Virus record (IMG/VR): IMGVR_UViG_3300021255_000041
Location: 561 to 64,560 of that record
DNA: 64,000 nt
Direction: 5' to 3' (one strand)
From: a virus
Taxonomy: Duplodnaviria; Caudoviricetes
Shown: positions 1 to 64,000 of the stretch, piece after piece
Position numbering within the stretch: the stretch's first letter is position 1
Layout: the number at the start of each line of letters is the position of its first letter
Translations under genes and position numbers: made by a program
The notes under the pieces: model-generated
Seen by the model: only the letters and a program-made list of their open reading frames with translations
Databases searched by the model: none
Told to the model about the DNA's origin: nothing

Positions 1-854
1 TGGCTGTATAGCATACTCGTAAGGTATTCAATCTGAGCTAATAGATTGTTTTCCACGGGACGATTCAACTGCGTAATCCTTTCAGCAGCATCTATCCAGG
101 CCACACCATACTTGGATCCGGCGAGCTGATCTTCGATCTCACTTCGTCTTTCACGTGCCTGCTGTTTCCTGATCTCAGATCTTGCTCCATAAGGAAGCTG
201 AATGATTAGATCCAATTTCCCGGAATTATTCTTCTCGTCAATCATGTCCAGAAGATTGAGCTTCCGGATAAGTCTTTGCATAGTGGAGTTCGGTTCGTTC
301 ATAACCGAGAAGAATGGATTTTCCACTATGCCGACCGAGTCTTTGGTCCTGAGCAATTCCTCTCTTCGACCGGACCAGTCGTTATAGACATACAGCTTCA
401 CTTTCCTCGGGTACCACTCAATCACTCTCCCAGTACGTATTGACTCAATCTTGTACGAGTTGTTTTCCTCCGGATCGTCGTCGGTATCGATCGGCACAAG
501 AGCAACACATCCTTCGTCAAGCATTGACTGCACTGCGTCCTGTATAAAAGCTCTGCCCGTCTGGTCGATGTTTGCTTCGATAGACAGGCAGTTATTGAGT
601 CCGGTATTCATTTCGGATACGAAACGATTGTTTTCGTCGAGTCGTACGTGGCGTATATCTATTGATGCCGCGTCAAGAGCAATCCTGTTGTAAACGGCAG
701 TCACAATCGATCGCTCATTACCGCGTGAGAAGTGCATCCGATCAGGTCTGTAAGAAAAGCCAGGTCCAATGTCTCGCCACCCCTTTGTGGGGTCTTTGTT
801 AAAAAAAGCATTCCAGGCGTGTTTCAGCCTGGAACCAAAAGAAAATTCACTCAT
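1..854 (-). CDS. Portal protein (partial, runs off window start)
   Basis: Manual translation from ATG at 854: MSEFSFGSRLKHAWNAFFNKDPT...YNRIALDAASIDIRH...EANIDQTGRAFIQD; lies directly downstream of terL; absent from ORF track because truncated. Confidence 0.75.
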   Translation of the reverse strand, partial: MSEFSFGSRLKHAWNAFFNKDPTKGWRDIGPGFSYRPDRMHFSRGNERSIVTAVYNRIALDAASIDIRHVRLDENNRFVSEMNTGLNNCLSIEANIDQTGRAFIQDAVQSMLDEGCVALVPIDTDDDPEENNSYKIESIRTGRVIEWYPRKVKLYVYNDWSGRREELLRTKDSVGIVENPFFSVMNEPNSTMQRLIRKLNLLDMIDEKNNSGKLDLIIQLPYGARSEIRKQQARERRSEIEDQLAGSKYGVAWIDAAERITQLNRPVENNLLAQIEYLTSMLYS

Positions 855-914
855 TTTGAAATTTGTCCTCCACTTGACTAAATCGAAAGCCGTGTACATC
901 ATCGGTTTTTCTTT

Positions 915-2666
915 TTAGTCGAAAGCCTCTCTATTTTGCTTATATGCTATAAAAGCGTCCATCATGGCCGCTACAGCATCAATCTTATCCTCGTTGTGCT
1001 TTTTAAGCAGCTTACGATTACCGTTGGTATCTTCAAGAACGATACAGTTACCCATCGTGAACTTCATCAGTTCTTCGTCGAACAGCAGCATACGCTCTTC
1101 TGACAATTTCTTTAATTCACCAAGCGGCACAGACTCCGTTCGCGCTCCCTGAATTACTTTGACAATGCCGAACGGCCCGTTCTCTGTCTGCCATCTCTCG
1201 ACAAACTCTTTCGCGTTATACGGGTCGTATCCGAAAGAGCGAACGTCGTACTCACTTTCGACAATATAGTTGTCGAGATTCTCGTAGACTTCCAGCATGT
1301 CCAGAACAGTCCCTTCCATGACGATCAAGCTGCCCTCGTCCATGAACGTGTTATAAAGAGTTCGCATTGCTGACGGAAGCTTTGCCAGGGTGAGTGACGA
1401 AATATAGTTTCTCGTCTTAATCCCGAAGCGCCCGTCACCTAGCGGGAACAAGAATGTGAACGAGCAGAAGTCATCGCCTCGCGATAGGTCTGCGCCAAGT
1501 GAACATGGCATCTGCCAATAATCTCTCTTACGATGAGGCAGCGTCTCTTCATACGTAAAGAAATATGTATAACCCTCCATTGGTATGCCAAATCTCTTTG
1601 CTAGTATGTCGTTTCGAGCTGCTGGTGCATTCTCCGCTCTCTCAACTTCAAGCTGATATGTCTCGTAGCTGACTGTCTTCCCGATATTCGGGTTTGCTTT
1701 AATCCACATATCCGGATTGTTGACTTCTTCAATGCTGTCAAGCTTATACCACCAGATCGAAGTATGATCGTTCTTGTAATCGCCCTTGAGAATATCCATG
1801 AGTTCAAGTTTGATCGTATCCCCGATGCCGTTTCGCACCGTTCCCTCTGAGCTCATTGCGACGATAACGTAGTCCGGAACATCGCCCTTAGCAGCACCCT
1901 GTTCTATCGCACCGATCGGATCCTCTCGGATGTCCCCGGAAAGCCATTCGTCCAGGGTCGCGTACTTAACACGGAGTCCCTGCAGTTTATTGATGCTCAG
2001 CGGCCTGATCTGCAGAAGAGAATTGGTCATGAAGTTCTCGACGCCCTTCTTGGTAGATGCGAGCTGCTGACGATTAGCCCTTGAACCGGTGGTATTTTGA
2101 AGTGAGCCTTGAGTCAGGAAATCAAAGACTGGACCTCTGTGAATTGAGATTGCCGTAGCAAGTGGTGATACAATTTCGTCCGCCATCTGCATAGTCGGCG
2201 CAGTGGTAATTTGATGTGTTGTCGACGTGTCTACGATTAACCCGTATCCATGAATACAGGTTCCGTATAAAGATTTAGCGGCTGATCGTCCGACAATAAG
2301 GTATTGCTTGTTGATCAACCGCTTTTTAATTCTTCGGAGAACGTATCGTCCTCCATGATTATTCGGGAATGGTTTATAAACACTTCGCTCGACGAAATAA
2401 TACCAGCCGAAGATCTGTTCACCCCACAGCTTGAATGTATCGAGCATATGAAGTGGACTGCCATCCGTGAGTGTTAATTCCTCTTCACAGAAAGCGATCC
2501 AGCCTTCTACCGCTTCGTCGTCGTAGTAATATTTAGGATTTTCTATCAGGGCGTCGATCCGATTCATTTCCATTGAAATGGTTTCACAAACAGGGATCTC
2601 ACCTCTGATCACGGCCTCTCGAAAACGGCCGTAGTATTTCGGCACAGCCGTGTTCGATAAAGACAT
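915..2666 (-). CDS. terL: Terminase large subunit
   Basis: 583 aa; Walker A-like VGRSAAKS, Walker B LDEW, C-terminal nuclease acidic motifs (GADLS, KIDAVAAMMD); position before portal. Confidence 0.9.
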   Translation of the reverse strand: MSLSNTAVPKYYGRFREAVIRGEIPVCETISMEMNRIDALIENPKYYYDDEAVEGWIAFCEEELTLTDGSPLHMLDTFKLWGEQIFGWYYFVERSVYKPFPNNHGGRYVLRRIKKRLINKQYLIVGRSAAKSLYGTCIHGYGLIVDTSTTHQITTAPTMQMADEIVSPLATAISIHRGPVFDFLTQGSLQNTTGSRANRQQLASTKKGVENFMTNSLLQIRPLSINKLQGLRVKYATLDEWLSGDIREDPIGAIEQGAAKGDVPDYVIVAMSSEGTVRNGIGDTIKLELMDILKGDYKNDHTSIWWYKLDSIEEVNNPDMWIKANPNIGKTVSYETYQLEVERAENAPAARNDILAKRFGIPMEGYTYFFTYEETLPHRKRDYWQMPCSLGADLSRGDDFCSFTFLFPLGDGRFGIKTRNYISSLTLAKLPSAMRTLYNTFMDEGSLIVMEGTVLDMLEVYENLDNYIVESEYDVRSFGYDPYNAKEFVERWQTENGPFGIVKVIQGARTESVPLGELKKLSEERMLLFDEELMKFTMGNCIVLEDTNGNRKLLKKHNEDKIDAVAAMMDAFIAYKQNREAFD

Positions 2667-2689
2667 AGTTTTCTCCTTATGTATATGTA

Positions 2690-2718
2690 TTGACCTCGAT
2701 TAGGCCACGGTATAAAAT
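2690..2718 (+). promoter_or_regulatory. Host sigmaA-type promoter for the 2749 gene
   Basis: TTGACC (2690-2695), 17 nt, TAAAAT (2713-2718). Confidence 0.65.
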
Positions 2719-2748
2719 ACTTATAACGTATTTCAAGGGGGTATAGAC

Positions 2749-3444
2749 ATGAGAAACGAGATTGACCTTTGCGGAACTCACATCCCAATCAATGACATAA
2801 AAGATTATCGAGTCGTATATCGCGAATACATTTATCGACCTGTGTATAAAGAATGTGAAGGCAGTCTGAAAAGACTCATTGGTGGTAAATATGAATTTGC
2901 AGAGATGATACCGTTCGCGGCTATACTCTCGAAAGAAGATCGAGAGTTTAAACTGGCAACCGCTGATTTCAACGCAAAAACAATCAGAGATTCGATTATC
3001 AAAGATGTCGCTATAGGCGCCATGTCTTTGGTTACTCATAAAATCGAAAGAAAGCATTATCGTTGTAAAAACATAGCGGGACGAGTCTTTTCGATATACC
3101 TTGATGATGTGCCAGCTTCTGTTATCCGCGCTGACGGCAGAATCATTGATGTTTATAAAAACGACGAACTATACCCGCAACTTGGAGAACCAATAGCCCC
3201 CACAATACTTACAATAAAGGCCCTTCAAATTTCAGCGTCCAAGGAAACCCATTTGTTTTATGGAAATAGAATCCAGTTAAACGACGCCGATGAAACTTAC
3301 CAGCATTTACGCCAAACGATTTCAGACTTTGAAGAATTGGCTCGTATAGAGCAGCAGCCGCAAAAACAACTATCAATAAATGCCAAAGCAGAAAAAATAT
3401 CAAACAAGCTGCCAAAATTATTTGTTCGATCCGAAAAGAAATAA
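2749..3444 (+). CDS. Hypothetical protein, moron-like; the only credible plus-strand gene
   Basis: 231 aa ORF with RBS (AAGGGGG) and own sigmaA promoter, filling the gap between minus-strand genes. Confidence 0.75.
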   Translation: MRNEIDLCGTHIPINDIKDYRVVYREYIYRPVYKECEGSLKRLIGGKYEFAEMIPFAAILSKEDREFKLATADFNAKTIRDSIIKDVAIGAMSLVTHKIERKHYRCKNIAGRVFSIYLDDVPASVIRADGRIIDVYKNDELYPQLGEPIAPTILTIKALQISASKETHLFYGNRIQLNDADETYQHLRQTISDFEELARIEQQPQKQLSINAKAEKISNKLPKLFVRSEKK

Positions 3445-3445: not shown

Positions 3446-3991
3446 TTAGCTTTTAAGAGTATGAATTGCAACCGCGATCGATGCTGCCGAAGCGCCAATT
3501 GCAAGAACGTCCCCGGCTGTTGCCAAAACATCGGAAACATACCGTCTTCCGCTTGCAGCATTCTCGGTCACAGCATTCTTATAATTTCTTTCGAGATTCA
3601 TTCTGTTAATTGCATCCTGCAATTCTTTATTAGACATTTTAGATAAATCCATTGATTTGCGGATTTTTTCTTCCTTATGTCTTGCGGATCTCGATGCAAG
3701 ATTTGACGCTTTTTGTGCAGCTGCGCTAGCCGAATTCTGTGCGCTAGACGCGTTTCTATAATCAGACGCCACGGCATCGTGTATTCCAGCTTTGGCGTTT
3801 CTTGAAGAATTCGGATTGATTTTACCGGTTTCGGGATCAAAGTCAACACGCTTTGCGTTATCACTTATCTGACCCAATCTTCTTTTACCTGCTTCGGTCA
3901 GCGTCCCGTCTTCATTCTGATATCGTCGTACGCCCCACTTTTGGCCTTTTATTCCGTGATGATAAAGAACATCTGTATTATACTTACTCAT
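3446..3991 (-). CDS. HHGxKGQKWG-tag protein (DUF7211-like), putative virion cargo
   Basis: Start moved to MSKYNTDVLYHHGIKGQKWGVRRYQ (RBS AGGAGG); Ala/Gly-rich hydrophobic C-terminal helix. Confidence 0.8.
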   Translation of the reverse strand: MSKYNTDVLYHHGIKGQKWGVRRYQNEDGTLTEAGKRRLGQISDNAKRVDFDPETGKINPNSSRNAKAGIHDAVASDYRNASSAQNSASAAAQKASNLASRSARHKEEKIRKSMDLSKMSNKELQDAINRMNLERNYKNAVTENAASGRRYVSDVLATAGDVLAIGASAASIAVAIHTLKS

Positions 3992-4054
3992 GATAACCCT
4001 CCTATGGGGCCAAACGTAAGAGACCACGATTTTTTCGTAGCCTCTCTTTTTTAG

Positions 4055-4420
4055 TTACTTTAAAACCTTTAGTTCATCTAAAATGTCTGATAACCTTTCA
4101 CCGTTTTTCTTTCTTTTATCGATTTCGACCCATTCCGAATTTGTTAATTCTCGTCTGAGCTTCCAATAATGTCCTAAACTTCTATCGTAACAATACAGTT
4201 CCTTGAGATCCTGCTCTTTTTTCAGATTCGCTCGCCTAGCCATGCTTTTCGTTATAGCCTTGGTTGCAGCAAACGCCCCTGGTCCGCAAATCAGGATCAA
4301 TTCCTTATTGTCATTCAAGAATTTCATCGCATCAGAAACTTTCTCTCGAAACCAAATTTTCCTCTGAGCCTTCTTCGTCTGTTTCTTAAGATCTTCGAAT
4401 GTGATTCTATCAGCTTCCAT
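4055..4420 (-). CDS. Hypothetical protein in a phage-promoter cassette
   Basis: 121 aa, RBS GAGAGGAG, preceded by promoter motif 4453-4478. Confidence 0.75.
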   Translation of the reverse strand: MEADRITFEDLKKQTKKAQRKIWFREKVSDAMKFLNDNKELILICGPGAFAATKAITKSMARRANLKKEQDLKELYCYDRSLGHYWKLRRELTNSEWVEIDKRKKNGERLSDILDELKVLK

Positions 4421-4452
4421 TTTTTCTCTCCTCTCATAAAAGCTTTATTCTT

Positions 4453-4478
4453 TCATAAAAGGATGTGTAAAACACACG
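4453..4478 (-). promoter_or_regulatory. Phage promoter motif copy 1
   Basis: CG TGTGTTT TACA CATCCTT TTATGA. Confidence 0.7.
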
Positions 4479-4492
4479 TATAATTACATAAA

Positions 4493-4522
4493 AAAAAGAG
4501 CCTCGTTCAAGAAGCTCTTTTT
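4493..4522. terminator. Bidirectional intrinsic terminator
   Basis: AAAAAGAGC...GCTCTTTTT overlapping the stop of the 81-aa ORF. Confidence 0.65.
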
Positions 4523-4752
4523 AGCGTTTCAGGATCAACAAGCGTCGTTTTCTCGAAAAGACCTTCGCGTATAAAATCAGTAAATCCCATAAAAGTTACA
4601 TTATCCGTGTTTTTATTTACAACCCAGGTGATATTATTGTAATATTGGCCTGGGTTTGATTCTAAGCACACATAATAATTTACATCATCTTCTCGAATCC
4701 AAAAGATTTTTTCATGCAATAGCTCTTTCAAAGAACCGTATACTTTTTCCAT
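4507..4752 (-). CDS. Small protein, candidate immunity partner
   Basis: 81 aa, RBS GAAAGGAGG, directly downstream of the papain-fold ORF and followed by a terminator. Confidence 0.6.
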   Translation of the reverse strand: MEKVYGSLKELLHEKIFWIREDDVNYYVCLESNPGQYYNNITWVVNKNTDNVTFMGFTDFIREGLFEKTTLVDPETLKRAS

Positions 4753-4783
4753 TTGATCCTCCTTTCTTAAAATATAATGTTAA

Positions 4784-5731
4784 TCATGCGAAATTTACAT
4801 ATTTTTCCAAAGCATCAATATTAATTTCAGCGCCATCTAGGCGAGCAACTGTGAAAAAATCACGAGGGTTCATCATCTTCCAATATATCATAACACCGTT
4901 ATCTTTTTCACCAGCTTGGAAATCGTAAAACGATACTTTACCATCTTTAATATCCCAGTTAAAAGCATGTCCACCAGGACGTATTTTATGATCCCATTGA
5001 ATGCTGCAAACACCAGATGCATTTTGACCGAATTTATTTATCAAAAATTCAGCCGCATCTTCCGGTGATTTCCCAAATTTTACAGCACTGCCGTCTAACA
5101 CGCGCGCGCCCTTGAAACAATCTTCTATCAAACCGCCTAATAGTTGTTGATTACCGCCAGTTCCCTTCGCCGTGACATCATATCCAGCCATTCGCAGAAA
5201 GCCGGCAACTGCGCAATTCGTGCAATTGTTTTGACCTTCCAAAGTACTGCGTAATGGGTTCGCCTTGGCTAAGCTTTCGCTTAATGTTTCCTTACTAGCT
5301 AAACGTTTTAAACGCGAGGCGCTTTTACCGGCAACATCACTAAACGTTTCTTCGACAGAATCAACATTACCGACAAGTTTATGCTGTTTCATAAAAGTAT
5401 CGGTAACTATATTTTTGCCTATATTAATGTTGTTGTCAAGTATTCCAGACTGATACAGTTTATATCCGCCGTACGCAGCCAATGCCGTTCCTACGGCAGC
5501 AGTCCCAATCTTCAAAGCTCGTTTCTGATTATCCGTAAGGCTATATCTATCGGTACCGCCATCCTTTTTATTGTTTCTTTTATCTTTATCCAGGCTTTTT
5601 CGCCAGCCAGCTCGTCGTTCTGAAGCCGAATGATCGGATTCGCCCAATGGATATGGAGGGCCGTTTCTACGTCCCCACTTCTGCCCTAGAATCCCATGAT
5701 GATAAAGATAAGAAGGACTATAATTACTCAT
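4784..5731 (-). CDS. HHG-tag protein with C-terminal papain-fold (Tox-PL-like) domain
   Basis: Start MSNYSPSYLYHHGILGQKWG (RBS AGGAGG); NNC170TNC, GGH255AF, YD270FQ give a Cys-His-Asp triad. Confidence 0.75.
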   Translation of the reverse strand: MSNYSPSYLYHHGILGQKWGRRNGPPYPLGESDHSASERRAGWRKSLDKDKRNNKKDGGTDRYSLTDNQKRALKIGTAAVGTALAAYGGYKLYQSGILDNNINIGKNIVTDTFMKQHKLVGNVDSVEETFSDVAGKSASRLKRLASKETLSESLAKANPLRSTLEGQNNCTNCAVAGFLRMAGYDVTAKGTGGNQQLLGGLIEDCFKGARVLDGSAVKFGKSPEDAAEFLINKFGQNASGVCSIQWDHKIRPGGHAFNWDIKDGKVSFYDFQAGEKDNGVMIYWKMMNPRDFFTVARLDGAEINIDALEKYVNFA

Positions 5732-6080
5732 CAGTATCCTCCTGACTATCGAAGTCGGCCTGTATTTTAAGACGCCATTCAAACTCGTTGATCTGCTGCC
5801 GAATGACATCAATCACAGCGCCGCTCAAAGGCGGATCAAAAACAAGTTTAACTTTGAGAAACATGTACGATTTGACCAGCTGCAGCTGAGTGCTCTCCGG
5901 TATAAAATTTGTCCAGTTTTCGTCTTTGCCGGTTATGGCGAACCCATCTGTCGGTCCAACTCCGAGCTGGTGTAATATCATGAATACGGAGTTTATGTGC
6001 ATAATCAGATCCGCGTCGAAATGCTCATACTCCTCCGTGATGCCGAGCATCTTTTTTATAGAGGTCAATATACTTTCCAT
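5724..6080 (-). CDS. Head-tail connector/adaptor-like protein
   Basis: 118 aa MESILTSIKKMLGI...HINSVF, helical adaptor-like sequence in the packaging region. Confidence 0.55.
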   Translation of the reverse strand: MESILTSIKKMLGITEEYEHFDADLIMHINSVFMILHQLGVGPTDGFAITGKDENWTNFIPESTQLQLVKSYMFLKVKLVFDPPLSGAVIDVIRQQINEFEWRLKIQADFDSQEDTDE

Positions 6081-6109
6081 TTTGTTCTCCTAACCTCCAA
6101 GCTTGCATG

Positions 6110-6532
6110 TTAATGCTTCCACGGACAGGTATCATTCTTTGTCCGGAAAGTTGGTCCAAGCATAAGCTGGGACTCGTCACCATAGTGTATGGCATTGTGG
6201 GTATTATGAGTTGTGCTGATCAAGTATTCAGGATTCATCAGCATCTCACTTCTTGTCTCCAAATCCCTTTGGGATATCGGGTTCATATGATGGATAAGAA
6301 TCTTTCCAAATATCTGATAATCTTCAATTCCCAAATCACAGCCGTTGTCCCGCAAGATCACTTGATTTCGAATCGTTCGCCATTCAAGTGACTTATAGAA
6401 CTGCTGATTCATGTACCGATCGAATCCAAACGTCTCTCTGCCGACGGATCCGCTCAGTTTCAGATACTCAAAGCGTTCTTTGAACGTCGGAAGTGTTATG
6501 AGCTCAGAATACGTTCTAATCTTCGTACTCAT
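6110..6532 (-). CDS. HNH endonuclease (packaging-associated)
   Basis: RDNGCDLG, IHHMNPI, THNAIH motifs; adjacent to the small terminase candidate. Confidence 0.8.
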   Translation of the reverse strand: MSTKIRTYSELITLPTFKERFEYLKLSGSVGRETFGFDRYMNQQFYKSLEWRTIRNQVILRDNGCDLGIEDYQIFGKILIHHMNPISQRDLETRSEMLMNPEYLISTTHNTHNAIHYGDESQLMLGPTFRTKNDTCPWKH

Positions 6533-6863
6533 AGTATTCTTCCTCGTTGGTTTTCCCGCTGTATCGCTTCATCGCCGCTATAACCGCCATATACTGCTCT
6601 TCGGTTCTTCGTGCAGCCTCCAGTGTTTCGGTTTTAGCTCTGAGTAATTTCACTTCTTCTTCGAGTTTCTCCCGTTCTCGGCGTTCCCGCATCGATCCGA
6701 GCTTGAGATAGTGCGTGATCACCTGTGATGAAGCCGTTCCTTCAAGTAATTGTCGCTCTGCCAGGTCAACCGCGAGCGAAATCATCTTGTTTTCCTGTGC
6801 TTCAGGAGTGAGCGCCGGCCTGGTCTTACGAGAAGGGCCGACATTCTTCGTAGTTTTCTTCAT
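6516..6863 (-). CDS. Putative terminase small subunit
   Basis: 115 aa, first gene of the late operon, coiled-coil C-terminus; assignment positional. Confidence 0.5.
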   Translation of the reverse strand: MKKTTKNVGPSRKTRPALTPEAQENKMISLAVDLAERQLLEGTASSQVITHYLKLGSMRERREREKLEEEVKLLRAKTETLEAARRTEEQYMAVIAAMKRYSGKTNEEEYYEYED

Positions 6864-6910
6864 TAAGCACCCCGCTCTTAAGACTTTTCTTATAGTTTTG
6901 CTGTACTTTT

Positions 6911-7012
6911 ACAGTACTTAAATAGACCCGCAAACAGAAGCAACCACACCAAAGTCGAAAGGAGGAAAGCACTTATCGAACATACAGCTTTGCGGGCCTG
7001 TTTAAACACTGC
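6911..7012 (-). ncRNA. Long-stem RNA hairpin with anti-RBS loop (candidate trans-acting sRNA)
   Basis: 24-bp stem (6911-6934 with 6989-7012) with 4 G-U and 1 mismatch on the minus strand; 54-nt loop contains the reverse complement of the 32340-32371 mRNA leader. Confidence 0.65.
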
Positions 7013-7040
7013 AAATATCTTAAAAACATTTCATCAAATT

Positions 7041-7110
7041 TTCCCCCGGAGAATTTTTAAAGACCGGGGCGATCATAGAGGGGGTGGTTGTTTTTGAGAC
7101 CCCCCTCCCC
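7041..7110. other. Candidate cos/genome-end region
   Basis: Non-coding G/C tracts and inverted repeat GAGGGGG (7078-7084)/CCCCCTC (7101-7107) between the last early gene and terS. Confidence 0.4.
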
Positions 7111-7177
7111 TATGTAATCGACCAGTTACGGTGTTGCTTCGAGATCAACACTCACAGTGTCAGCGAATTTCGAGCAA

Positions 7178-7444
7178 TTATTGGGAATAAAACTCTTCAT
7201 CAGTCAATTTCTTCTTAACCTTTTTGTAGATATTCAAGAAGTCATATTTGATGATTTCGTCAATTGCGCGCTCAATTTCTTCATTATTCTCTTCATCTGT
7301 GAATTGACTTGAAGTTTTAGCAATTCTTGCTAAGTAGCCACAAGAGTTGTATCCTTTTTCGACATCATACAAGAACCATTCGCGAAAGTTATCGAACGGA
7401 TCAAACGGATTATCGAAAGTCGTTAAAGCTGCAACTTCATGCAT
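7178..7444 (-). CDS. Hypothetical protein downstream of RNAP
   Basis: 88 aa with RBS, LTTFDNPFDPF motif. Confidence 0.75.
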   Translation of the reverse strand: MHEVAALTTFDNPFDPFDNFREWFLYDVEKGYNSCGYLARIAKTSSQFTDEENNEEIERAIDEIIKYDFLNIYKKVKKKLTDEEFYSQ

Positions 7445-7462
7445 AAACGTTTTCTCCTTTCT

Positions 7463-10234
7463 TTAACTTTCTTTGTATTTGTTTACAGTTGACACTGAAA
7501 CACCTAAAGCATCAGCAATTTCCTGATTTGTGTAACCAGAAGCTTTCATTGCCTGGAGCTTATTTATTTTAGCTGGGGTCATTGTTTTTGCCGTACGAGG
7601 TGTAGCTCTTTTTCTAAGATCATCACCGTCAACATACTTAATAATCTGACGCAATTTGTTTTCTGATATTGCACCAGACTGAATTGCTTCCCATTCACGA
7701 TCAGAAAGCTTAATCGGCTGTCTTAGTGCGCCGACTCTGATTCGAGCAGAAGTCAGTTCACGTTGAGCAATCTTCTTAAGTTCTTTCTTTTCGATAGCAG
7801 GATTGTCCTGTTTTATAGCATCAACACGGGCTTTAGTCATGATCTGGGCGGTGCGCTCTCTAGGGGCGTTTTTAAGTGCCAGGTTGAGCCGGGAGTCAAG
7901 AGAATCTGCCTCTTTCTTATAAACTTTATTAGCAGAGGGGGAGTATTCTATACGCCCGGTATTGATCATCTCTTTGCGGGCCGAGTTTGCCATAGCCTTA
8001 AGGTTATTGGCATAGTTAGCATAGGCCAGCTCCACAGGGGTACGCCGGTTGGATACAAGGGTCATAGCGTCCGATGTCTCCATCATAGCGTTACTCTTCT
8101 GAGTCCTGGTAATTACTTTGCCTTTCTTATTGACATATGTCAGATTGTCAGCTGTTTTCCAGGAAACTGAGCCGTCCTCATTAATAATGGGGCTACCCTG
8201 TCTCTTAGGTACTGACCTCTGTGACTTGGCACGGGAGATGATAGTGGCGGCACCTTCGTGATACTTACCGTCTTCCCCTATATGTCCCTGATACTTTCTC
8301 TTAAGCTCAGCAATGTGGTTCTCCTTCTCGCTGCGCTTATAGTCCAGGTTATGCTTGTATGCATCAATAACTACCATATTGTGCATTGTCGCCCAGGCAA
8401 GTTCCTTTTCGGTCGCACCAAACTGGGTCATATCGCTCAGAAGGTTCGACACAGTGCCCATCTCTTTCTGAACAGCACCCTTGTTCATTCTCTTGTAGGG
8501 AACCGAGGTGCTGCCTGGACCGTATTTGTCTTTGGCATCGAAGCCCTCTAAGTCTTTGAGAGGCGGCGTCGACTGGACTTTAACTCTGTCCGATAATGGT
8601 ATGACCATAACGGTATCACCGTCAAAGTCAGCTCCGGACAGACGATCCGCAGTAGCCTTCGTAATACCGATCGCATCTTTCGGGTTCGTACCAATAACAT
8701 CTTTGCCTTCCTGCACTTTGTTGTTAACTTTGCAGATAGGGATCTGATAAGTACCCTCATGCGGGAATCTGACAAGAGCTACTCTTTCGCCGTCTCTGTA
8801 GTTAGGCGCATAGACCTCGTTATCGTTGATTGTGGTCAAAGGAAGGATGACCTGATAACTCTGACGAGGAAGTGACGCACCCTGCAGATGGACCGCAGCA
8901 GAATCGCAGTCATCCGCAAAGGACTTAAGAAGCTCTTTCTTGACCGTCGGATTGGTCAGCGATCTGATCTCCTCAAGTTCCATCTTTTTATCCGCAATGG
9001 ACAGATTGAGCTGGTTATTAATAAGCTTCATATCCTGCTTAGCAAGGAACTGTGATGGCAGCTTATTCTTCCAGTCCCCCCAGTCTCCTTCATCGCCACG
9101 TTTATTGATCAGTGAAAGGTGCTCTTTACCGTCGTCTCCTTCATAATAGCTCTGACCGCCTACTTCTTTGATCAACGACCCAAATGGGTTCTTAGGGTCG
9201 TCTGTAATCTGCTTCAATACCGAATGGTCTTTCGGTCCAAGAGCGGGAGTTCCTTTCTTCTTGTTGGTGTTAAACATGACGTCCACGCCATCAGGAAGGT
9301 TGTCGGAATATATAGCCATGCCCTTGAGGTAATGAGTACCATCGACCAGGATGCGAACCTGTGCGTAATGACTGTCTCCGAGAGAAAGGTCTTTTACACC
9401 TCTACGGATCTCGATCACGCCATCCTTCGCTTCACCACCATCTTCGGCGTAGCGAATAGCCAGTCGCTTTGAGTCCATGCTTGCAGGATATTCAAAGGCT
9501 TTTCTGATTTCCCGTCCATTGTCGACAAGGATCTTGTCGTAGTCCTTAAGCGAATGTACGTCTTCGAAGTTGTAAATGTCTTTATGCTGCGTACCGGGAG
9601 GACATAACACTTTAAGGTTGGTCTGTCTTCCGGGATTGGTTGCCTGAGGTACGCCACCGCCATAGACCTCGTATCCTTCGGCCTTGAGCAATTCAAGAGC
9701 CTGGTCGAATTTCTCTTTGGATACATTGCACTCACGCTCGACACCAGCACCAACATCGATCATACCTTTCTTATTCACAGCTTCTCTGAGATAATCGGCA
9801 GTGACCTTTGCGCTGTCCATGCGTGCTTCTGCATTCTCATTGAGAAGCGATCTGATGGAGGATTCACTGTTATAACCCATTTCTTCTGCGATCTGGGTTC
9901 GCGTTAAGCCTTTTTCCTGAAGCTCTTTTGCTTTGGCAACTTTGGCTGATCTTTCCTCGTTTTTAGCAAGGGCATAGTAAGCTCTGAACTGAGTGGTTGA
10001 TAAATTCAAAGACTTGGCAATGGCTGTATCACCTTTGAAGGTTTCGCCAGTATCAGGATCCGTCCAGGTGAATCCTTCTTTACGCATCTTCTTGACACGA
10101 CTCACGAAATCGCCGCTATGCTGATTGGGATTTTCACCGCTGCCCAATGGATATCTGCCTGATCCACGTCCAGGTGCTCCGTCCATTTTACTGACACCGT
10201 AGTGCATTAAGATGTCTTCAGCCACTTTGTTCAT
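7463..10234 (-). CDS. Single-subunit two-barrel (double-psi) RNA polymerase with HTH domains
   Basis: GADFDGD at 8615-8629 (D536-D540), R489FPH, AQVRILVDGTHYLKG (RdRP-type QxR..KG); HTHs at N- and C-termini. Confidence 0.8.
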   Translation of the reverse strand: MNKVAEDILMHYGVSKMDGAPGRGSGRYPLGSGENPNQHSGDFVSRVKKMRKEGFTWTDPDTGETFKGDTAIAKSLNLSTTQFRAYYALAKNEERSAKVAKAKELQEKGLTRTQIAEEMGYNSESSIRSLLNENAEARMDSAKVTADYLREAVNKKGMIDVGAGVERECNVSKEKFDQALELLKAEGYEVYGGGVPQATNPGRQTNLKVLCPPGTQHKDIYNFEDVHSLKDYDKILVDNGREIRKAFEYPASMDSKRLAIRYAEDGGEAKDGVIEIRRGVKDLSLGDSHYAQVRILVDGTHYLKGMAIYSDNLPDGVDVMFNTNKKKGTPALGPKDHSVLKQITDDPKNPFGSLIKEVGGQSYYEGDDGKEHLSLINKRGDEGDWGDWKNKLPSQFLAKQDMKLINNQLNLSIADKKMELEEIRSLTNPTVKKELLKSFADDCDSAAVHLQGASLPRQSYQVILPLTTINDNEVYAPNYRDGERVALVRFPHEGTYQIPICKVNNKVQEGKDVIGTNPKDAIGITKATADRLSGADFDGDTVMVIPLSDRVKVQSTPPLKDLEGFDAKDKYGPGSTSVPYKRMNKGAVQKEMGTVSNLLSDMTQFGATEKELAWATMHNMVVIDAYKHNLDYKRSEKENHIAELKRKYQGHIGEDGKYHEGAATIISRAKSQRSVPKRQGSPIINEDGSVSWKTADNLTYVNKKGKVITRTQKSNAMMETSDAMTLVSNRRTPVELAYANYANNLKAMANSARKEMINTGRIEYSPSANKVYKKEADSLDSRLNLALKNAPRERTAQIMTKARVDAIKQDNPAIEKKELKKIAQRELTSARIRVGALRQPIKLSDREWEAIQSGAISENKLRQIIKYVDGDDLRKRATPRTAKTMTPAKINKLQAMKASGYTNQEIADALGVSVSTVNKYKES

Positions 10235-11229: not shown

Positions 11230-11255
11230 TCATAAAAGGGCGTGTTATTTTTGCG
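11230..11255 (-). promoter_or_regulatory. Phage promoter motif copy 2 (heads the nuclease-RNAP operon), followed by hairpin and U tract
   Basis: CG CAAAAAT AACA CGCCCTT TTATGA; hairpin 11197-11231. Confidence 0.7.
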
Positions 11256-17767: not shown

Positions 17768-17793
17768 CCATAAAAGAGACTGTTAATATAGCG
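17768..17793 (-). promoter_or_regulatory. Phage promoter motif copy 4
   Basis: CG CTATATT AACA GTCTCTT TTATGG. Confidence 0.7.
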
Positions 17794-18086
17794 AACAAAA
17801 ACAAAAGAGCCCTCTTGCGAGAGCTCAAATAATGATACAGATATACTTCAGCGACCAATGCGTCGCCAAAACTTCGCGTTCCATCGCCTTTCTGTGAAAT
17901 ACTGGATCATGTCCAGTAAAGATCCGTAGGCGATTTCATACGGCATGAAATTATTAAGCCATTTACGCATTTCCTTTCCTCCCTTCTGAAATATAAATTG
18001 TTCCACAAAAGCCTCTGTAATTTTCGCGTCCAAACGCATATTTATACATTCATTTGTCATACACTGCGTTTTTATACACTTTTTAT

Positions 18087-18302
18087 TCATTTATCTCTAT
18101 ATTTATACTGCTTAGCGTAATGGTATTTGTTGTACTTATCCGATATCTTCTTGAGCCTTATCGCGTTCATGTTGTCGACATGTTCACGATACTCTTTATA
18201 TTCTGCACAGGAACTATGACACCCGACTTCTCTCCGCCCACAGCCTTGACAAGGTCCCTGTATCGCAAAACCGATCTTCATAGCTCTCCCCTTCAAAAAC
18301 AA
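18087..18302 (-). CDS. Cys-rich hypothetical protein
   Basis: PCQGCGRREVGCHSSCAEY. Confidence 0.55.
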   Translation of the reverse strand: MFLKGRAMKIGFAIQGPCQGCGRREVGCHSSCAEYKEYREHVDNMNAIRLKKISDKYNKYHYAKQYKYRDK

Positions 18303-18336
18303 AAGGACCCTCTGTTTCCAGAGAGCCCTCTTCGGA

Positions 18337-18720
18337 TCATTTAGTTACAGGTATGATAGTGATGTAAAACTTGGATAAAATATTTTTTCCGTTCATTAAC
18401 ATCCCGCCGATATCACAAACCTCTGTCGAGTAAAGTCGAACAAAGGTGGCTTCACGCTTATTTATCTTCTTGAGAATGTCGTCCTGCTTACGACGAATGA
18501 AGTTGCAGTATTTGGTTCCACCAAAGTCTTTGAGCTCATCATGCTCATCAACTTCGTTGTCGCCAAACTCCTCGTTCCACTTGTCGTAATGAGGGTTAAG
18601 CTCATCACAAGCAATGTTGCGTAACCTCATGTACTCTGATTCAACCAGCTGCCTTAGAGCGTTTGCTTTTTCAAGCGCCGGGTTGTCATAATGAAATCGT
18701 ACTTTATAAGTTGTTTCCAT
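18337..18720 (-). CDS. Cassette gene (127 aa)
   Basis: RBS after promoter 18752; flanked by identical 29-bp repeats at 18300-18328 and 18786-18814. Confidence 0.7.
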   Translation of the reverse strand: METTYKVRFHYDNPALEKANALRQLVESEYMRLRNIACDELNPHYDKWNEEFGDNEVDEHDELKDFGGTKYCNFIRRKQDDILKKINKREATFVRLYSTEVCDIGGMLMNGKNILSKFYITIIPVTK

Positions 18721-18751
18721 AATTATCTCCTTTCTGAACTATAACATTGTT

Positions 18752-18777
18752 CCATAAAAGAGACTGTATATTTGACG
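18752..18777 (-). promoter_or_regulatory. Phage promoter motif copy 5
   Basis: CG TCAAATA TACA GTCTCTT TTATGG. Confidence 0.7.
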
Positions 18778-18829
18778 GACAAAAGCAAAAGGACCCTCTG
18801 TTTCCAGAGAGCCCCGACTTTGGTTACAA

Positions 18830-19084
18830 TTACTTCAGTCTTGGTACATAATCTTCTTTCGCCCGAAACCAGTCTTCAGCATATTGTTCTAATTCCAATT
18901 TTCCGTTATCAGCCATATTGCAAATATCAATTATCTCTTCATCGGTTAATTCGCCAATCCCTTCAAGCCATTTCTTGAAGTCGCCTCGGCGGAATCTTTG
19001 ACCGTACTTCGACATGATCTTTACGTATGAAGCAATAAATCTGGAATAATAAATTGTGCCAACAAGTTTGTTTTCGAAACCCAT
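18830..19084 (-). CDS. Cassette gene (84 aa)
   Basis: Start MGFENKLVG after RBS AAGGAG and promoter 19118. Confidence 0.7.
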   Translation of the reverse strand: MGFENKLVGTIYYSRFIASYVKIMSKYGQRFRRGDFKKWLEGIGELTDEEIIDICNMADNGKLELEQYAEDWFRAKEDYVPRLK

Positions 19085-19117
19085 ACATATATCTCCTTTC
19101 CGAACTATAACATTGTT

Positions 19118-19143
19118 CCATAACAGCCCATGCAATACCTGCG
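19118..19143 (-). promoter_or_regulatory. Phage promoter motif copy 6
   Basis: CG CAGGTAT TGCA TGGGCTG TTATGG. Confidence 0.65.
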
Positions 19144-30356: not shown

Positions 30357-30382
30357 TCATAAAACTGCTTGTTTTTTTCGCG
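30357..30382 (-). promoter_or_regulatory. Phage promoter motif copy 7
   Basis: CG CGAAAAA AACA AGCAGTT TTATGA. Confidence 0.7.
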
Positions 30383-30384
30383 AA

Positions 30385-31167: not shown

Positions 31168-31478
31168 TCCCCTTCTAAATATGAATAATCATCGTTTAAT
31201 ACATCCACCGCACAGAGCCCTATGTCATATGCGATGGAGAATATAAAACTGTTTTTGTTATCGACTGTAGACAGCTCATCCATCGTCTTGCAGAATTTCT
31301 CGACAACAATGCTCGGCGGCTCTGGCGACTCAATGATTTCGCTCATAAGCTCCTGCAGCGCCCATCTCTGATAAGACAGATTTACAAAGCGCAGGGTTTT
31401 CATACCCACTTTCGGTTCATCGAGATAGTCTTCGCCGAACTTTTTCAATTTAGACAGGACGAGCTGCTTGTATGTCAT
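31164..31478 (-). CDS. Hypothetical protein
   Basis: Start MTYKQLV after RBS AAGGAGG. Confidence 0.6.
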   Translation of the reverse strand: MTYKQLVLSKLKKFGEDYLDEPKVGMKTLRFVNLSYQRWALQELMSEIIESPEPPSIVVEKFCKTMDELSTVDNKNSFIFSIAYDIGLCAVDVLNDDYSYLEGE

Positions 31479-32525: not shown

Positions 32526-32537
32526 TTTCATACCTCC

Positions 32538-36789: not shown

Positions 36790-38004
36790 TTACATAAACT
36801 GGGGTATTTTGTCGAAAGCCTCCTGCTTCTCCTGAAGCTTCCTTCGATCCCTATGATAATACTGTTCGGTACAGGCTATGGTCGTGTGTCCCATCTGACT
36901 CTCAATCAACTTCTGATCCATTCCATAGTCGAGTAGTATCGTACCATATGTCTTACGGATCTTGTGCGGTGATCTTGGCGGGATACCGACTTTTCCACAG
37001 ATCAGATATAGCCGTTTACGAATCTTGACTGTGTTTACACGCTCGCCATGCCTGTCCAAAAATATAAACTCCCCAAACGGATTGCAGAGTTTCAGCTTGT
37101 CCACAATCCACTTCTGACTCGTCGGGACAATGACGGTACGGTATCCTGCCGGCGTCTTAGGAAAGTCGTCGACGTAATAGATATACCGCCCTGTCTCAGA
37201 ATCCCTCTTTCGAGTCTCCGTTCGCTTGATATTAAAGACCGTCCCATGGAAGTCCTCATGTTTCAAGGCTACAAGCTCCCCAACTCGTATCCCCGTCACA
37301 AACATCAAAGCGATCCCGATGTTCCTCGGATCAGGATTAGCCCGAATGTAATCCATGATCTTCTCAATCTCGTCATCGTAGAACACCTCTTTCTCGTCGT
37401 CCACAACTCTCTTCTTGAAATCGCTGTCCGACACATCCAGCTCAAGAAAGAAATGCTCCACGTCCATGGCAGTCAGCTTTCTTTTCTTAGCTCTCTTGAG
37501 AAACCCTTTGGTGATCCCTTTGAGATTCGCAAAAGCTTTTGCAGTGAGATTAAAATCCACAATGCAGTCGCAGAGAAAATCCTCCCAGTCCGTCTCGTCA
37601 AGATGCTTAATACGGTTTTTGCCGAATGAGCCATAAAACCGGTTAAAGATCTGTGTGTTAATCAAATGGGTACTCGGCTTGATCTGCCTCCTTGCAAGCC
37701 TCCTGTCGTTCCACTCGCTAAACACTTCCCTGACTGTAGGGTTCTCGATCTCCTCTTTCCAGTAGTCTACAATTATGTCGTATAATTCTTCTTTTGTACT
37801 CCTCCTGTATAATTTTCTATGCTCTGGTGTGTCCTCTGCGGGCAAGTATGTACACCATTGTCCTTTTTGGTTAACCCAGATCTTATGCGTATGCATCTCA
37901 AGATATTTATTGCGCTCTCTCATTTCGATCCGCGCTTCTATTATTTGTAAATCTAATATATCATTCTCGATAGCATATCGCAATAATTCGCTCTGACTAA
38001 TCAT
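36790..38004 (-). CDS. int: Tyrosine integrase
   Basis: TGIRVGEL (R), HKIR (HxxR), MGH, QYY catalytic residues; start MISQSE. Confidence 0.9.
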   Translation of the reverse strand: MISQSELLRYAIENDILDLQIIEARIEMRERNKYLEMHTHKIWVNQKGQWCTYLPAEDTPEHRKLYRRSTKEELYDIIVDYWKEEIENPTVREVFSEWNDRRLARRQIKPSTHLINTQIFNRFYGSFGKNRIKHLDETDWEDFLCDCIVDFNLTAKAFANLKGITKGFLKRAKKRKLTAMDVEHFFLELDVSDSDFKKRVVDDEKEVFYDDEIEKIMDYIRANPDPRNIGIALMFVTGIRVGELVALKHEDFHGTVFNIKRTETRKRDSETGRYIYYVDDFPKTPAGYRTVIVPTSQKWIVDKLKLCNPFGEFIFLDRHGERVNTVKIRKRLYLICGKVGIPPRSPHKIRKTYGTILLDYGMDQKLIESQMGHTTIACTEQYYHRDRRKLQEKQEAFDKIPQFM

Positions 38005-38109
38005 GGTAAACTGACGCCTCACCCGATAAAAATAAAAGGGCGTGTAAGAGATTTCCTCCACAGCCCTTTATCAAATTAATACGGTTTTACGTCACCTGCG
38101 TCTCCCTGT

Positions 38110-62198: not shown

Positions 62199-64000
62199 TC
62201 AGCCCTCGCCAGGATCAGTAGTCGCAGAACCGGTCACGTCTTCCTCGATGGCGATCGCAGAATAGACTCTCGTCAGAGCACCAGAGCAGCGAGTCTCAAG
62301 CAGGGATTTCTCCTGGTTGAAGTCGATATCGAACTGAGTGAAGTGAGTGATCTGACCGCCCTTGGTCGCGCCAAGAAAATAGTCGGACAGGTTGCAGATC
62401 AGAGCGACCAGCTTCTTAGTCTTCTGAGCGCCGTCCACAGTAGTCGTGCGGGTCTTATCGGCGAACTGCTCTGCGGTGTAGATAGCGCCGACATTCAGCG
62501 CGGTTGCCAGTTCGGCCTTGGAGGAGTAAATTCTGCGGCCATTCCGGTCACGGGCCAGCAGCATCACATTCAGCATATGCGGAGTAATGAACATATCCGG
62601 CGTTCCGGTGCCTTTGAATTTCTCCCTGGCATACAAGCAGGTGTTTATCATAGCTTCGGCCTGGATATAGTTCTCGCCGAAATATCCCTCGGTGTTTGTA
62701 CCCTGCAGAGTGGGGTCAGAAGTATCCAGGTCCACGTGAAGCGTATACAGGTCATCGTCGGTCCAAACCGGACGGATGTGCTCCGGATAGATCTTGCCGT
62801 CGGCACCGTCTTCACGACCGTCACCAAGCATGATAGCCGTCGCAAGCTCCTCGTTCAGCATCATGCGGTCGATGTTGTACATGTACTGCACATAATCAAA
62901 GTCGACGATATCGGTGATATCATCTTTGTGCAGGGCGTTCTTCACATATACGGTCTGCGGATCGTGTGTCCGGCGAACCAGGTTAAAGTTACCGGTAATC
63001 GTTTTCTTCTTACCCTTCTCGTAACCCTTTGCCCGGAGCGCATCGATATTCCTGATGTCAACCTGCTGGGTACGAATTCTGCTGATCGGGGATTTATGCA
63101 CTTTATTCATGACCACGCTGATCCAACCCTGGTCATTAGTGATCAGTTCCGGAGCACCGGGACGAACGTCTTTATATTCCGGGAACAGCCAGGTCACATT
63201 ACCGTTCTGGTTCGTCGCCTGAACAAATCCGCTGGCAGATGCCACTTCGTCGGAATGCTGGATTGTAATGTCGTGATCTTCGCAGTAAATATTGAGCGCG
63301 TTCCGGAATGTACCGACTCGGCTGTTCTTGGCCAGTTCCAGAATCGCGGTCTCGTCAGAATGAGCCAGGACATTCTGCTGAGTGTCTTCGGTTCTATCAA
63401 ACGCATTGTGTTTCATGTCGTCTCCTCCTTCGGATTCATCTTTTTCTTTGTTCTCTTCAGCCATTGCTGCGCCAACCAGAGCATAGACCACATTTTTCTG
63501 ATCTTCGTTCATAGTGTCGAACACGTCCTGTACAGTCTTCTCTTTTTTAGCGCTTTCGTTGGTATCTTCATCATTCTCTGATTCGGTTTCAGTATCGTCT
63601 GCATGGTACAGTTCGATCGTTTCTCCAGTGTAGATGATCGCCTCTGTCTCTGTGTCGGATCCATGGGCAAGGGTGATCTGATCGATAAAGGCGCCGGGAT
63701 TTGCCGGTGCAATCACCATGCTGACTTCTTTAATGTCGCCATGAATGACATTATTGCCATGCTGTTTCAGCTGGTTGGCATAAATTGATAACGCTTTAAT
63801 ATCCCCGTTCTGAAGAACGAGCTTTGCGTTCTGTCCCTGCTCTGTATCGTTGAGATAGCAATACGCTCTTACGCCGTCTTTATCATTCTTGAGCAGAGCA
63901 TGACCGAGCACGTTGAAAATATCTTTGTGCTGGTGGTTCCACACAAGGGGAACCTCTTGTCCATCGTTTCCGATGAAGGCGTCTTTCATGATCACACGAC
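62199..64000 (-). CDS. Prohead protease - scaffold - major capsid protein fusion (5' end beyond window)
   Basis: PLVWNH, VLGHA, KEVSMV (HK97-type protease His/Ser); acidic linker; capsid region from LFPE onward; internal RBS and ATG at 63416. Confidence 0.85.
   Translation of the reverse strand, partial: RVIMKDAFIGNDGQEVPLVWNHQHKDIFNVLGHALLKNDKDGVRAYCYLNDTEQGQNAKLVLQNGDIKALSIYANQLKQHGNNVIHGDIKEVSMVIAPANPGAFIDQITLAHGSDTETEAIIYTGETIELYHADDTETESENDEDTNESAKKEKTVQDVFDTMNEDQKNVVYALVGAAMAEENKEKDESEGGDDMKHNAFDRTEDTQQNVLAHSDETAILELAKNSRVGTFRNALNIYCEDHDITIQHSDEVASASGFVQATNQNGNVTWLFPEYKDVRPGAPELITNDQGWISVVMNKVHKSPISRIRTQQVDIRNIDALRAKGYEKGKKKTITGNFNLVRRTHDPQTVYVKNALHKDDITDIVDFDYVQYMYNIDRMMLNEELATAIMLGDGREDGADGKIYPEHIRPVWTDDDLYTLHVDLDTSDPTLQGTNTEGYFGENYIQAEAMINTCLYAREKFKGTGTPDMFITPHMLNVMLLARDRNGRRIYSSKAELATALNVGAIYTAEQFADKTRTTTVDGAQKTKKLVALICNLSDYFLGATKGGQITHFTQFDIDFNQEKSLLETRCSGALTRVYSAIAIEEDVTGSATTDPGEG

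Follow-up and report, generated by a model that had tools for sequence, protein, structure and literature searches.

Three proteins with different bodies, encoded in the 64,000-nucleotide window analyzed here, share an N-terminal tag with the motif L-x-H-[HY]-G. The window covers bases 561-64560 of the 64,560-bp IMG/VR virus record IMGVR_UViG_3300021255_000041, which has terminal repeats, and is nearly the whole genome of a gut phage. The tag corresponds to the Pfam family DUF7211 (PF23847), a motif of 25 positions with unknown function. We suggest that DUF7211 is probably a short unstructured N-terminal peptide that marks a changeable set of proteins as head cargo in one large lineage of siphophages. 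Phages of this lineage encode a capsid protein fused to protease and spacer, together with a single-chain RNA polymerase (RNAP) of their own, and their hosts are Clostridia, Lactococcus and Actinobacteria. In what follows, P1 and P2 are names of proteins, and the residues around a cleavage site are always called positions (position P1, position P1' and so on).

The three tagged genes are on the minus strand, with starts at 3991 (P1), 5731 (P2) and 10234 (RNAP), and all the strings quoted for them in an earlier reading of the letters without database searches (hereafter the sequence-only reading) are present there. The leader has 8 residues in each of the three, with Leu as residue 9 and His as residue 11, and a six-frame scan found L-x-H-[HY]-G plus G-x-K-W-G only at these places in the window. 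When the complete 64.5-kb record was searched in six frames with the DUF7211 model, each of the three was matched (33.9, 22.8 and 14.6 bits for P1, P2 and RNAP, with E values of 2e-9, 7e-6 and 3e-3). Considering the gathering cut-off of 27 bits, only P1 passes (31.7 bits for the whole protein), while P2 (19.1-22.8 bits) and the RNAP (14.6 bits) are below it. For these two, tag homology appears likely from the invariant L, H and G, from the full G-Q-K-W-G of P2 and from the hhalign match of the RNAP family (86%, E 5e-6). The tags of P1 and P2 have 5 synonymous differences in 12 codons, which indicates selection on the peptide, with conservation at the protein level and not of a DNA repeat. The bodies that follow are indeed unrelated: helical with a hydrophobic tail in P1, a papain-fold toxin domain in P2 and a two-barrel polymerase in the RNAP.

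P1 is of a type that we call core, the sole tagged protein found in every related phage. Its DUF7211 tag is followed by a linker that varies, by a helical motif conserved in the alignment of orthologues (M-S-x-x-E-L-x4-R-[ML]-x-[LM]-E-x-x-Y) and by a C-terminal Gly/Ala-rich hydrophobic helix. In the AlphaFold model of P1, residues 1-23 are unstructured and helices are found at 66-113 and 121-180, with a predicted local distance difference test (pLDDT) score of ~45-52 across the first 20 residues. Since the tag is predicted to be unstructured, it would be a linear motif and not a domain. Many core orthologues (e.g. in loci L046, L052, L060 and L103) contain A-H-E-D-Y-x-K-A-H-S-x-K-S between the tag and the helical motif, which brings two more His, and the P1 of the window has a loose counterpart only. 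The position of P1 before the large terminase gene led us to consider a small terminase, which was ruled out by the C-terminal hydrophobic helix and by the lack of a DNA-binding fold or oligomerization signature. The tag of P2 carries both K-W-G and Y-P-L-G, and so bridges the canonical tag and the RNAP variant.

The RNAP is predicted from its sequence to be a single-chain two-barrel enzyme, similar to YonO and to RNA-dependent RNA polymerases (RdRP), with a D-F-D-G-D catalytic loop and helix-turn-helix (HTH) motifs at both the N- and C-terminus. Its tag shares only the first 12 columns of DUF7211, D-x-L-x-H-Y-G-[VIT], followed by R-Y-P-x-G-S-G. The RNAP N-termini of Lactococcus phage P078, Arthrobacter phage Circum, Gordonia phage Rickmore, Streptomyces phage HotFries (where the annotated start is too late) and a human-gut phage read [LA]-x-H-Y-G-x-x-R-x-S-G-R-Y-P-[YW]-G-S-G. 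Among unique RNAP N-termini from prophages and contigs of metagenome-assembled genomes (MAGs), phi-x-H-[YHF]-G (phi being a hydrophobic residue) is present in 30 of 32 and [RK]-[YF]-P-x-G in 31 of 32, with 8 residues as the commonest leader length. The conserved N-P-x-Q-H-S-G-D-F stretch after the RNAP tag has no hydrophobic residue at position P3, and its His is replaced by Arg in ~1/4 of the homologues. No sequence match to solved structures was found for the RNAP or for the capsid precursor.

Some further observations concern the polymerase. Several RNAP homologues (L004:2426-2500, L133, L149 and L178-L180) have a degenerate half-tag, I-x-x-Y-[FYL]-G without the His, 15-25 residues ahead of the real L-x-H-Y-G, suggesting that the tag's first half was once duplicated. 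The C-terminal HTH (7463-7540, residues ~885-922) weakly matches small-terminase HTH models (PF10668, PF06056, phrog_309 and phrog_7067), and no small terminase gene was recognized adjoining the large terminase. In the isolates, no other large gene lies between that of the RNAP and the genome end.

Canonical DUF7211 genes were found in P078, Circum, Rickmore, HotFries and the human-gut phage, from one (the single tagged gene of HotFries) to four (Rickmore) in each, lying between the connector, terminase and portal genes. Where 5 kb or more precede the capsid gene at viral loci, 38 of 40 contain tags, and all 127 tags at viral loci are co-oriented with this gene and located 0.6-9.6 kb upstream of it. 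When the search started from the tag, in bacterial and MAG contigs (mostly Lachnospiraceae, Ruminococcus, Oscillospiraceae and Faecalibacterium), all 29 loci whose downstream flank reaches 9 kb or more contained the capsid fusion, and the RNAP was upstream in most of the loci whose flank is long enough. The RNAP (250 phage records) and the capsid fusion (244) have identical host distributions. Between phages of Actinobacteria and those of Clostridia the overall identity is 40%, and the motif is conserved across this range. In these neighborhoods, the tag is strictly linked to the head module and the RNAP.

The capsid precursor is one chain formed by an S78 prohead protease, an acidic spacer or scaffold and an HK97-fold major capsid protein. 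A Peptidase S78 domain is predicted at residues 8-102 (PF04586, 35.8 bits vs a cut-off of 21), and the AlphaFold model contains a beta-rich protease domain (1-92) and the HK97 fold from ~265. The fusion of protease and capsid protein has been noted for the Arthrobacter clusters AM/AU (PMC5513430). With numbering from the ATG at 63989, the [LI]-x-H sites are at His 109, 129, 210 and 245 (S1 to S4 in Table 1), exactly where the sequence-only reading had placed them. Within the 171-aa spacer there are 4 matches of [LI]-x-H-[GAS] against 0.13 expected, a number never reached in 20,000 shuffles, and 4 of the 6 spacer His residues are within the motif, whose window-wide rate is 0.6 per 1000 aa. In an alignment of 62 homologues (41-67% identity), position P3 of these sites is L/I/M/V, position P1 is His but for one Gln, and position P1' is G/S/A/D. 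The surrounding spacer is acidic, variable in length and poorly conserved. All four sites are in or at the edge of low-confidence linkers between the protease, the helices and the HK97 fold in the AlphaFold model, with S3 beginning the helix after the second disordered stretch and S4 at the edge of the disordered 245-263 region. Such a modeled layout would be anticipated for a protease that releases both itself and the spacer from the shell, and the four look like maturation sites.

The same kind of site was observed in polyproteins. A tag profile built from 14 tags was used to search a large protein collection, where it matched at least 7987 proteins. The best-scoring 120 of these are nearly all polyproteins of 330-1872 aa, with 2-7 tags in 118 of them. 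Between the tags are GNAT acetyltransferases, Gln-deamidase domains, coiled coils, hydrophobic helices and other modules. Multi-tag polyproteins with His junctions are new here. We found [AILVMF]-x-H-[STAGD]-[SDAETG] at most 30 residues upstream of 63 of 109 non-redundant internal tags (58%), against 1.6% of control windows taken from the same polyproteins, and 78 of 109 against 5.6% of the controls if Gln is allowed at position P1. At S3 of P078, too, Gln stands in place of His. The stricter motif of the sequence-only reading, set beforehand, is present in 27% of the internal tags vs 1.2% of the controls, a 22-fold enrichment. In the junction logo, position P3 is L/A/I/M/V, position P1 is H (63) or Q (15), position P1' is S/D/T, position P2' is D/A and position P3' is I/F/L, and its core is that of the capsid sites S2-S4.

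The junction sites cluster from -25 to -6 relative to the tag His and are nearly absent between -5 and +90, and among N-terminal tags a site occurs in only 2 of 42 leaders of at least 12 aa. The leaders remaining after the predicted junction cut would have mostly 7-11 aa, and natural leaders have a median of 9 (8 in the window proteins). A cut at the junction sites would thus give each internal module a leader of 7-11 residues plus a tag, like the separately encoded cargo. A scoring matrix derived from the capsid sites puts the median upstream window at the 95th percentile of the controls. This 9-position matrix is too tied to the capsid flanks for a sharp prediction of junctions.

One of the 120 best-scoring proteins, a 6-tag polyprotein, is encoded between the terminase and the portal of a phage (locus L108) that shares its connector, terminase, portal and capsid fusion with the window. 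The junction sites of this polyprotein resemble the capsid sites of its own phage. Internal tags are also found in isolates, namely Rickmore gp15, Circum gp7 (two tags) and P078 gene 8. In Rickmore gp15 (L022:7335-9047), a 2H (LigT-like) phosphoesterase domain with two H-x-T motifs fronts an internal DUF7211 tag and core module, and this protein is a candidate for a delivered anti-defense enzyme.

The comparisons show a homologous motif that is linked to the head module, conserved His sites in the capsid precursor and junction sites in polyproteins; encapsidation, docking, cleavage after His and ejection are what we infer. The tagged proteins would join the prohead during assembly, and the likeliest route is that D-x-L-x-H-[HY]-G docks in a substrate-like manner on the protease/spacer part, at the inner face of every capsid subunit. 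The S78 protease would cut after the His of hydrophobic-x-His-small, and four cuts would strip the protease and spacer from the capsid protein. In the relatives with polyproteins, it would also cut 6-25 residues before each internal tag, giving pieces with a short leader and a tag. The tag would remain on the cargo, a trimming cut after its own His being a possible extra, and the cargo would leave with the DNA at infection. In the present phage it would comprise the RNAP, the protein with a glutamine-deamidase-type toxin domain and the helical protein with a hydrophobic tail.

That a His-specific prohead protease acts on the tagged proteins, and hence that these are present in the prohead, is a reasonable inference from the sequences. 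The junction sites use the motif of capsid maturation and the protease is part of the shell subunit, which would put the tagged proteins inside the prohead when the protease activates. The nature of the cargo (polymerase, toxin and acetyltransferase domains, phosphoesterase, membrane-type helices) suggests action in the newly infected cell. No His site that follows the tag and could remove it was found within 90 residues downstream, and considering also the conserved 25-35 residues after the His, the tag is probably retained by the mature protein. Its first half is site-like on the P side and not on the P' side, and it is the sole part shared with the RNAP, which favors docking as a poor substrate or pseudo-substrate. 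The sequence-only reading, which had proposed a maturation signal cut after His on the tagged proteins, therefore stands in part. The His-cut maturation gained support from the capsid sites conserved in disordered linkers at domain borders, from the polyprotein junctions and from the linkage to the head module and RNAP, and the removed leader like that of T4 did not hold.

A retained cargo tag has several points against it. Neither a virion proteome nor an N-terminal sequence for any member of the group was found in the literature library searched, which also gave no paper on the tag system or DUF7211 and no usable proteomic study of virions from Arthrobacter, Lactococcus 1706 or Rhodococcus Pepy6 phages. 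Cleavage after the His is proposed by analogy with other prohead proteases, and the exact scissile bond rests on this analogy. From a quarter to 40% of the internal tags have no clear upstream site, and the capsid matrix lifts only 12 of the 109 junction windows above the 99th percentile of the controls, indicating that the similarity between capsid and junctions is mainly at positions P3, P1, P1' and P2'. The samples of polyproteins and loci are best-scoring and phylogenetically related, so that the counts overstate independence despite a 50% redundancy filter. Positions P1'-P2' of the tag itself are H/Y/F-G in 331 of 337 tags, and those of capsid and junction sites are S/G/A/D and then D/E/A; with this difference, the tag's own L-x-H may serve for docking or as a pseudo-substrate, without being cut. 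The RNAP shares just the first half of the tag. In a temperate phage there is no injected polymerase after induction, so the host RNAP must be able to start the programme, and the related YonO is not known as a virion enzyme.

Four other explanations were weighed against the retained cargo tag. That the tag is a capsid-targeting leader like that of T4, removed by a cut after the His of its own L-x-H, was the claim of the sequence-only reading. It has in its favor the invariant L and H, the resemblance of positions P5-P1 (D/N/E, V/I/F, L, x, H) to S3 and S4, the rank of the tag L-x-H as the best or second-best His site by the capsid matrix in P1, P2 and RNAP, the few polyproteins without another candidate site before some tags (e.g. 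P0068 and P0076) and the RNAP, which shares just the L-x-H part. This seems rather unlikely to us, since the cut would remove only an unconserved leader of 2-38 residues (median 9 aa), and the part able to carry targeting, the 25-35 conserved residues after L-x-H, would stay, with no His site in the 90 residues behind it. Besides, position P1' of the tag never has the small residues of the capsid and junction sites, and an efficient cut at the tag would make the upstream sites of 58-72% of the internal tags redundant. Packaging with another partner (the portal, the terminase, the packaged DNA or the core protein of the P1 type), where L-x-H would be structural and the junctions would still be cut by the prohead protease, fits the strongly basic tag (K-W-G-V-R-R, then K/R-rich) and acidic capsid spacer, the place of the tagged genes between connector, terminase and portal, and the universal core protein as a potential hub. 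In other Firmicutes phages, it is the portal that holds MuF-type cargo (PMC5576092). We take such a partner as an unlikely explanation, although one to be kept in view: no specific partner is indicated, and it leaves unexplained why the RNAP variant shares only the substrate-like D-x-L-x-H-Y-G.

The tagged proteins could also be no virion cargo, the tag being an intracellular motif for interaction or localization (to the membrane, to the assembly site or among the proteins themselves) and the His junctions being cut by the capsid-fused protease before assembly or by another protease. Encapsidation is indeed only proposed, polymerases of the YonO type can be late, non-virion enzymes, an injected RNAP cannot be essential after induction of a temperate phage, and many tagged modules have hydrophobic helices. 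We judge this very unlikely, because prohead proteases are normally active only in assembled proheads and the present one is covalently part of the shell subunit, the tag is linked to the head module and not to lysis or replication genes, and cargos with toxin and acetyltransferase domains fit delivery better. The resemblance could also be fortuitous or come from a repeat of the DNA itself, as a cassette for recombination or an element of regulation; the shortness of the motifs speaks for this, as do the conserved 5' ends that polymorphic toxin loci often keep for cassette exchange. It is effectively refuted by the Pfam matches, the conservation across phyla, the number of database proteins and the synonymous differences given above, and its probability is practically nil.

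A broader version of the retained cargo tag would be programmable loading, in which the tag docks by substrate mimicry on the protease domain of each capsid subunit and thereby brings any protein that bears it into the prohead, a prohead protease of an as yet undescribed specificity for His (or Gln) at position P1 frees the shell and cuts the polyproteins as cargo trains, and the whole set, including the two-barrel RNAP, is injected. We see this as possible, but still doubtful. If true, infection by this widespread lineage of Gram-positive siphophages would start with the phage's own transcription enzyme together with swappable toxins, acetyltransferases and phosphoesterases.

If the retained cargo tag is confirmed, a Pfam DUF whose members in phages of gut, dairy and soil number many thousands would gain a function, and prohead proteases a new specificity, that of cutting after His. 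A siphophage supercluster infecting Clostridia, Lactococcus, Arthrobacter, Gordonia, Streptomyces and Rhodococcus would carry a single-chain RNAP and variable effectors in the capsid, for which the documented cases so far are mostly N4, crAss-like and giant phages. With the multi-tag polyproteins, phage cargo would be encoded in a new manner, and a head-loading tag of 25 residues would be a practical tool for phages of Gram-positive bacteria. Several members of the lineage are cultivable phages from teaching collections, so the idea can be quickly tested.

Table 1. Positions in the window of the tagged genes, their tags and domains, the neighboring genes and the candidate protease sites.
Feature	Position	Strand	Remarks
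P1	3446..3991	minus	181 aa; core tagged protein; PF23847 31.7 bits; phrog_32444
P1 tag	3917..3976	minus	DUF7211, residues 6-25; L9-Y-H11 at 3967..3959
P2	4784..5731	minus	315 aa; tag, hydrophobic helix, predicted C-terminal papain-fold glutamine-deamidase toxin domain
P2 tag	5642..5719	minus	L9-Y-H11, G-Q-K-W-G, then P-Y-P-L-G; 22.8 bits
P2 Gln_amidase (Papain fold toxin 1) domain	4910..5230	minus	residues 168-274; PF15644, 38.7 bits
RNAP	7463..10234	minus	923 aa; phrog_4291 1174 bits over residues 2-922
RNAP tag variant	10136..10216	minus	residues 7-33: D-I-L9-M-H11-Y-G, 7-residue insertion, G-R-Y-P-L-G-S-G
Capsid precursor	62199..63989	minus	596 aa from ATG 63989 (GTG 63995 possible); phrog_3270, 647 bits
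Site S1, L-A-H109-G	63660..63671	minus	just after the protease domain; phi-x-H-[GSAD] in 62/62 homologues; disordered 93-150
Site S2, L-Y-H129-A	63600..63611	minus	58/62 homologues; disordered 93-150
Site S3, L-A-H210-S-D-E	63357..63368	minus	60/62 homologues; position P4 Val, P3 Leu, P2' Asp
Site S4, I-Q-H245-S-D-E	63252..63263	minus	border of spacer and capsid N-arm; 59/62 homologues, split over two neighboring columns
Connector / virion structural protein	5724..6080	minus	PF24829, 131 bits; phrog_4247; conserved gene directly upstream of the tagged genes
Large terminase	915..2666	minus	family matches; gene order of relatives
Portal L-K-H-A	816..827	minus	near the portal N-terminus; possible further protease site
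81-aa open reading frame (ORF)	4507..4752	minus	directly after P2; position fits an immunity gene

All sizeable genes of the window are on the minus strand. In transcription order, the capsid precursor gene is followed by those for two major tail proteins, a 2432-aa tape measure and further tail genes, then by an integrase gene (38061..36790), early and replication genes, a RecB-like exonuclease and the RNAP. After the RNAP come an HNH gene (6532..6110), the connector, P2, small ORFs and P1. They are followed by the large terminase and then by the portal, which starts from 902 and runs off the window end, leading via the terminal repeat to the capsid gene. As the integrase shows, the phage is temperate. 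The order from connector to tagged genes is the same in Rickmore, Circum, P078, HotFries and locus L108, and in all relatives the tagged genes are just upstream of the large terminase or between the terminase and portal genes. A supercluster comprising Streptomyces BI, several Arthrobacter, Gordonia and Rhodococcus clusters, Lactococcus 1706-like and Faecalibacterium phages has been described, having in common HNH, connector, terminase, portal, a 'capsid maturation protease' and an HTH protein, the latter proposed as a YonO/RdRP-like polymerase with an HHpred match to PF05183 (bioRxiv 10.1101/842583). The phage of the window is a member of this supercluster. No near-identical phage DNA was found in the phage collection.

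A stretch of ~780 bp (2677-3444) separates the P1 stop from the terminase start, and in the relatives the core tagged gene abuts the terminase. It holds a 231-aa ORF on the plus strand (2749..3444), the only sizeable one of this strand nearby, and a 126-aa ORF on the minus strand, both without Pfam or PHROG match. The same was observed for the 81-aa and 121-aa ORFs between P2 and P1, with no family match in Pfam or PHROG. A promoter-like pattern, C-G-N7-H-R-C-A-N8-T-A-T-G-R, has 14 exact matches vs 0.34 expected, all on the coding strand (4453-4478, 11230-11255, 17768-19143 and 30357-35982, minus). One match is between P2 with its 81-aa follower and the 121-aa ORF ahead of P1, and another precedes the exonuclease and RNAP genes. 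An endolysin-like protein of 506 aa with two domains (amidase and peptidase matches) is encoded at 57613-59133 (minus), not at the genome end but among the tail genes, where it immediately precedes that for the tape measure. The portal ORF spans 3..902, with a likely true start at 854. The portal N-terminus, R-L-K-H-A-W-N-A-F, has Leu and His ~10-12 residues from this start, resembling the tags. Among 41 unique portal homologues, 28 contain hydrophobic-x-H-small before residue 56, and the others have R/K/N/S in place of His. The portal L-K-H-A may be a further substrate of the protease or merely a conserved feature of portals.

The Pfam entry DUF7211 is the tag motif itself and, so far as we can tell, makes no connection to capsid His sites, an RNAP or polyprotein junctions. 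Among the closest known systems is that of T4, where the internal proteins IPI-III and Alt carry a capsid-targeting sequence that is removed by the prohead protease gp21 at L/I-x-E, and are injected with the DNA. As in T4, an N-terminal signal is found on otherwise unrelated proteins, and a hydrophobic-x-P1 motif may serve both capsid/scaffold maturation and cargo: positions P3 and P1 agree and the junction sites match well, and positions P1'-P2' of the tag itself are of another kind. Unlike in T4, position P1 would be His and not Glu, and the protease is an S78 enzyme fused to the capsid protein and not a free gp21. The conserved part of the tag follows the candidate cut and would be kept, whereas the T4 peptide precedes the cut and is discarded. 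The cargo can also be made as multi-tag polyproteins, and the hosts are Gram-positive and the phages siphophages. The T4 analogy would thus hold for the logic (one protease motif for shell and cargo) and not for the anatomy. The HK97-type S78 proteases and the herpesvirus assemblin (V/L-x-A|S) share the logic of a hydrophobic position P3, a defined position P1 and a small position P1', but they differ from the present case, where protease, spacer and capsid protein are in one chain; we know of no description of a His preference at position P1 in this clan. The virion RNAP of N4 and gp66 of crAss-like phages are also non-canonical phage RNAPs that travel in the capsid, as is proposed for the RNAP of the window. 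By its sequence, the latter is of the same two-barrel D-x-D-G-D class as YonO and crAss-like gp66. To our knowledge, no shared loading tag exists for the N4 or crAss enzymes.

In phiKZ and SPN3US (proteases gp175 and gp245), the motif also favors Val at position P4 and Ser at position P1', as in S3 and S4, and the many head-internal proteins include a virion RNAP. SPN3US gp245 cuts at A/S/G-x-E, with Val at position P4 and Ser at position P1' (PMC10052503). Propeptides are cut there at several copies of the motif, but these are long N-terminal propeptides that are removed, with no short shared tag. Most SPN3US head proteins, subunits of the virion RNAP included, are reported as uncut, and that polymerase is multisubunit, unlike the present one. 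The MuF toxins (PMC5576092) are similar in their variable toxin domains on a constant N-terminal module, in their genes within the packaging module, in occurring in temperate phages of gut Firmicutes and in their proposed delivery with the virion. P2 has a variable C-terminal toxin domain (PF15644) and its gene is between connector and terminase, as in MuF toxin loci, and no match to a MuF (SPP1 gp7-like) domain was found in P1, P2 or their neighbors. The constant module here is a peptide of 25-35 residues and not a folded portal-binding domain, and unlike in MuF it is also present on a polymerase and repeated within polyproteins. The system of the window would be set apart from all those compared by the retained peptide, the proposed His at position P1, the protease fused to the capsid protein, the multi-tag polyproteins and the use of one tag family for a polymerase and polymorphic effectors.

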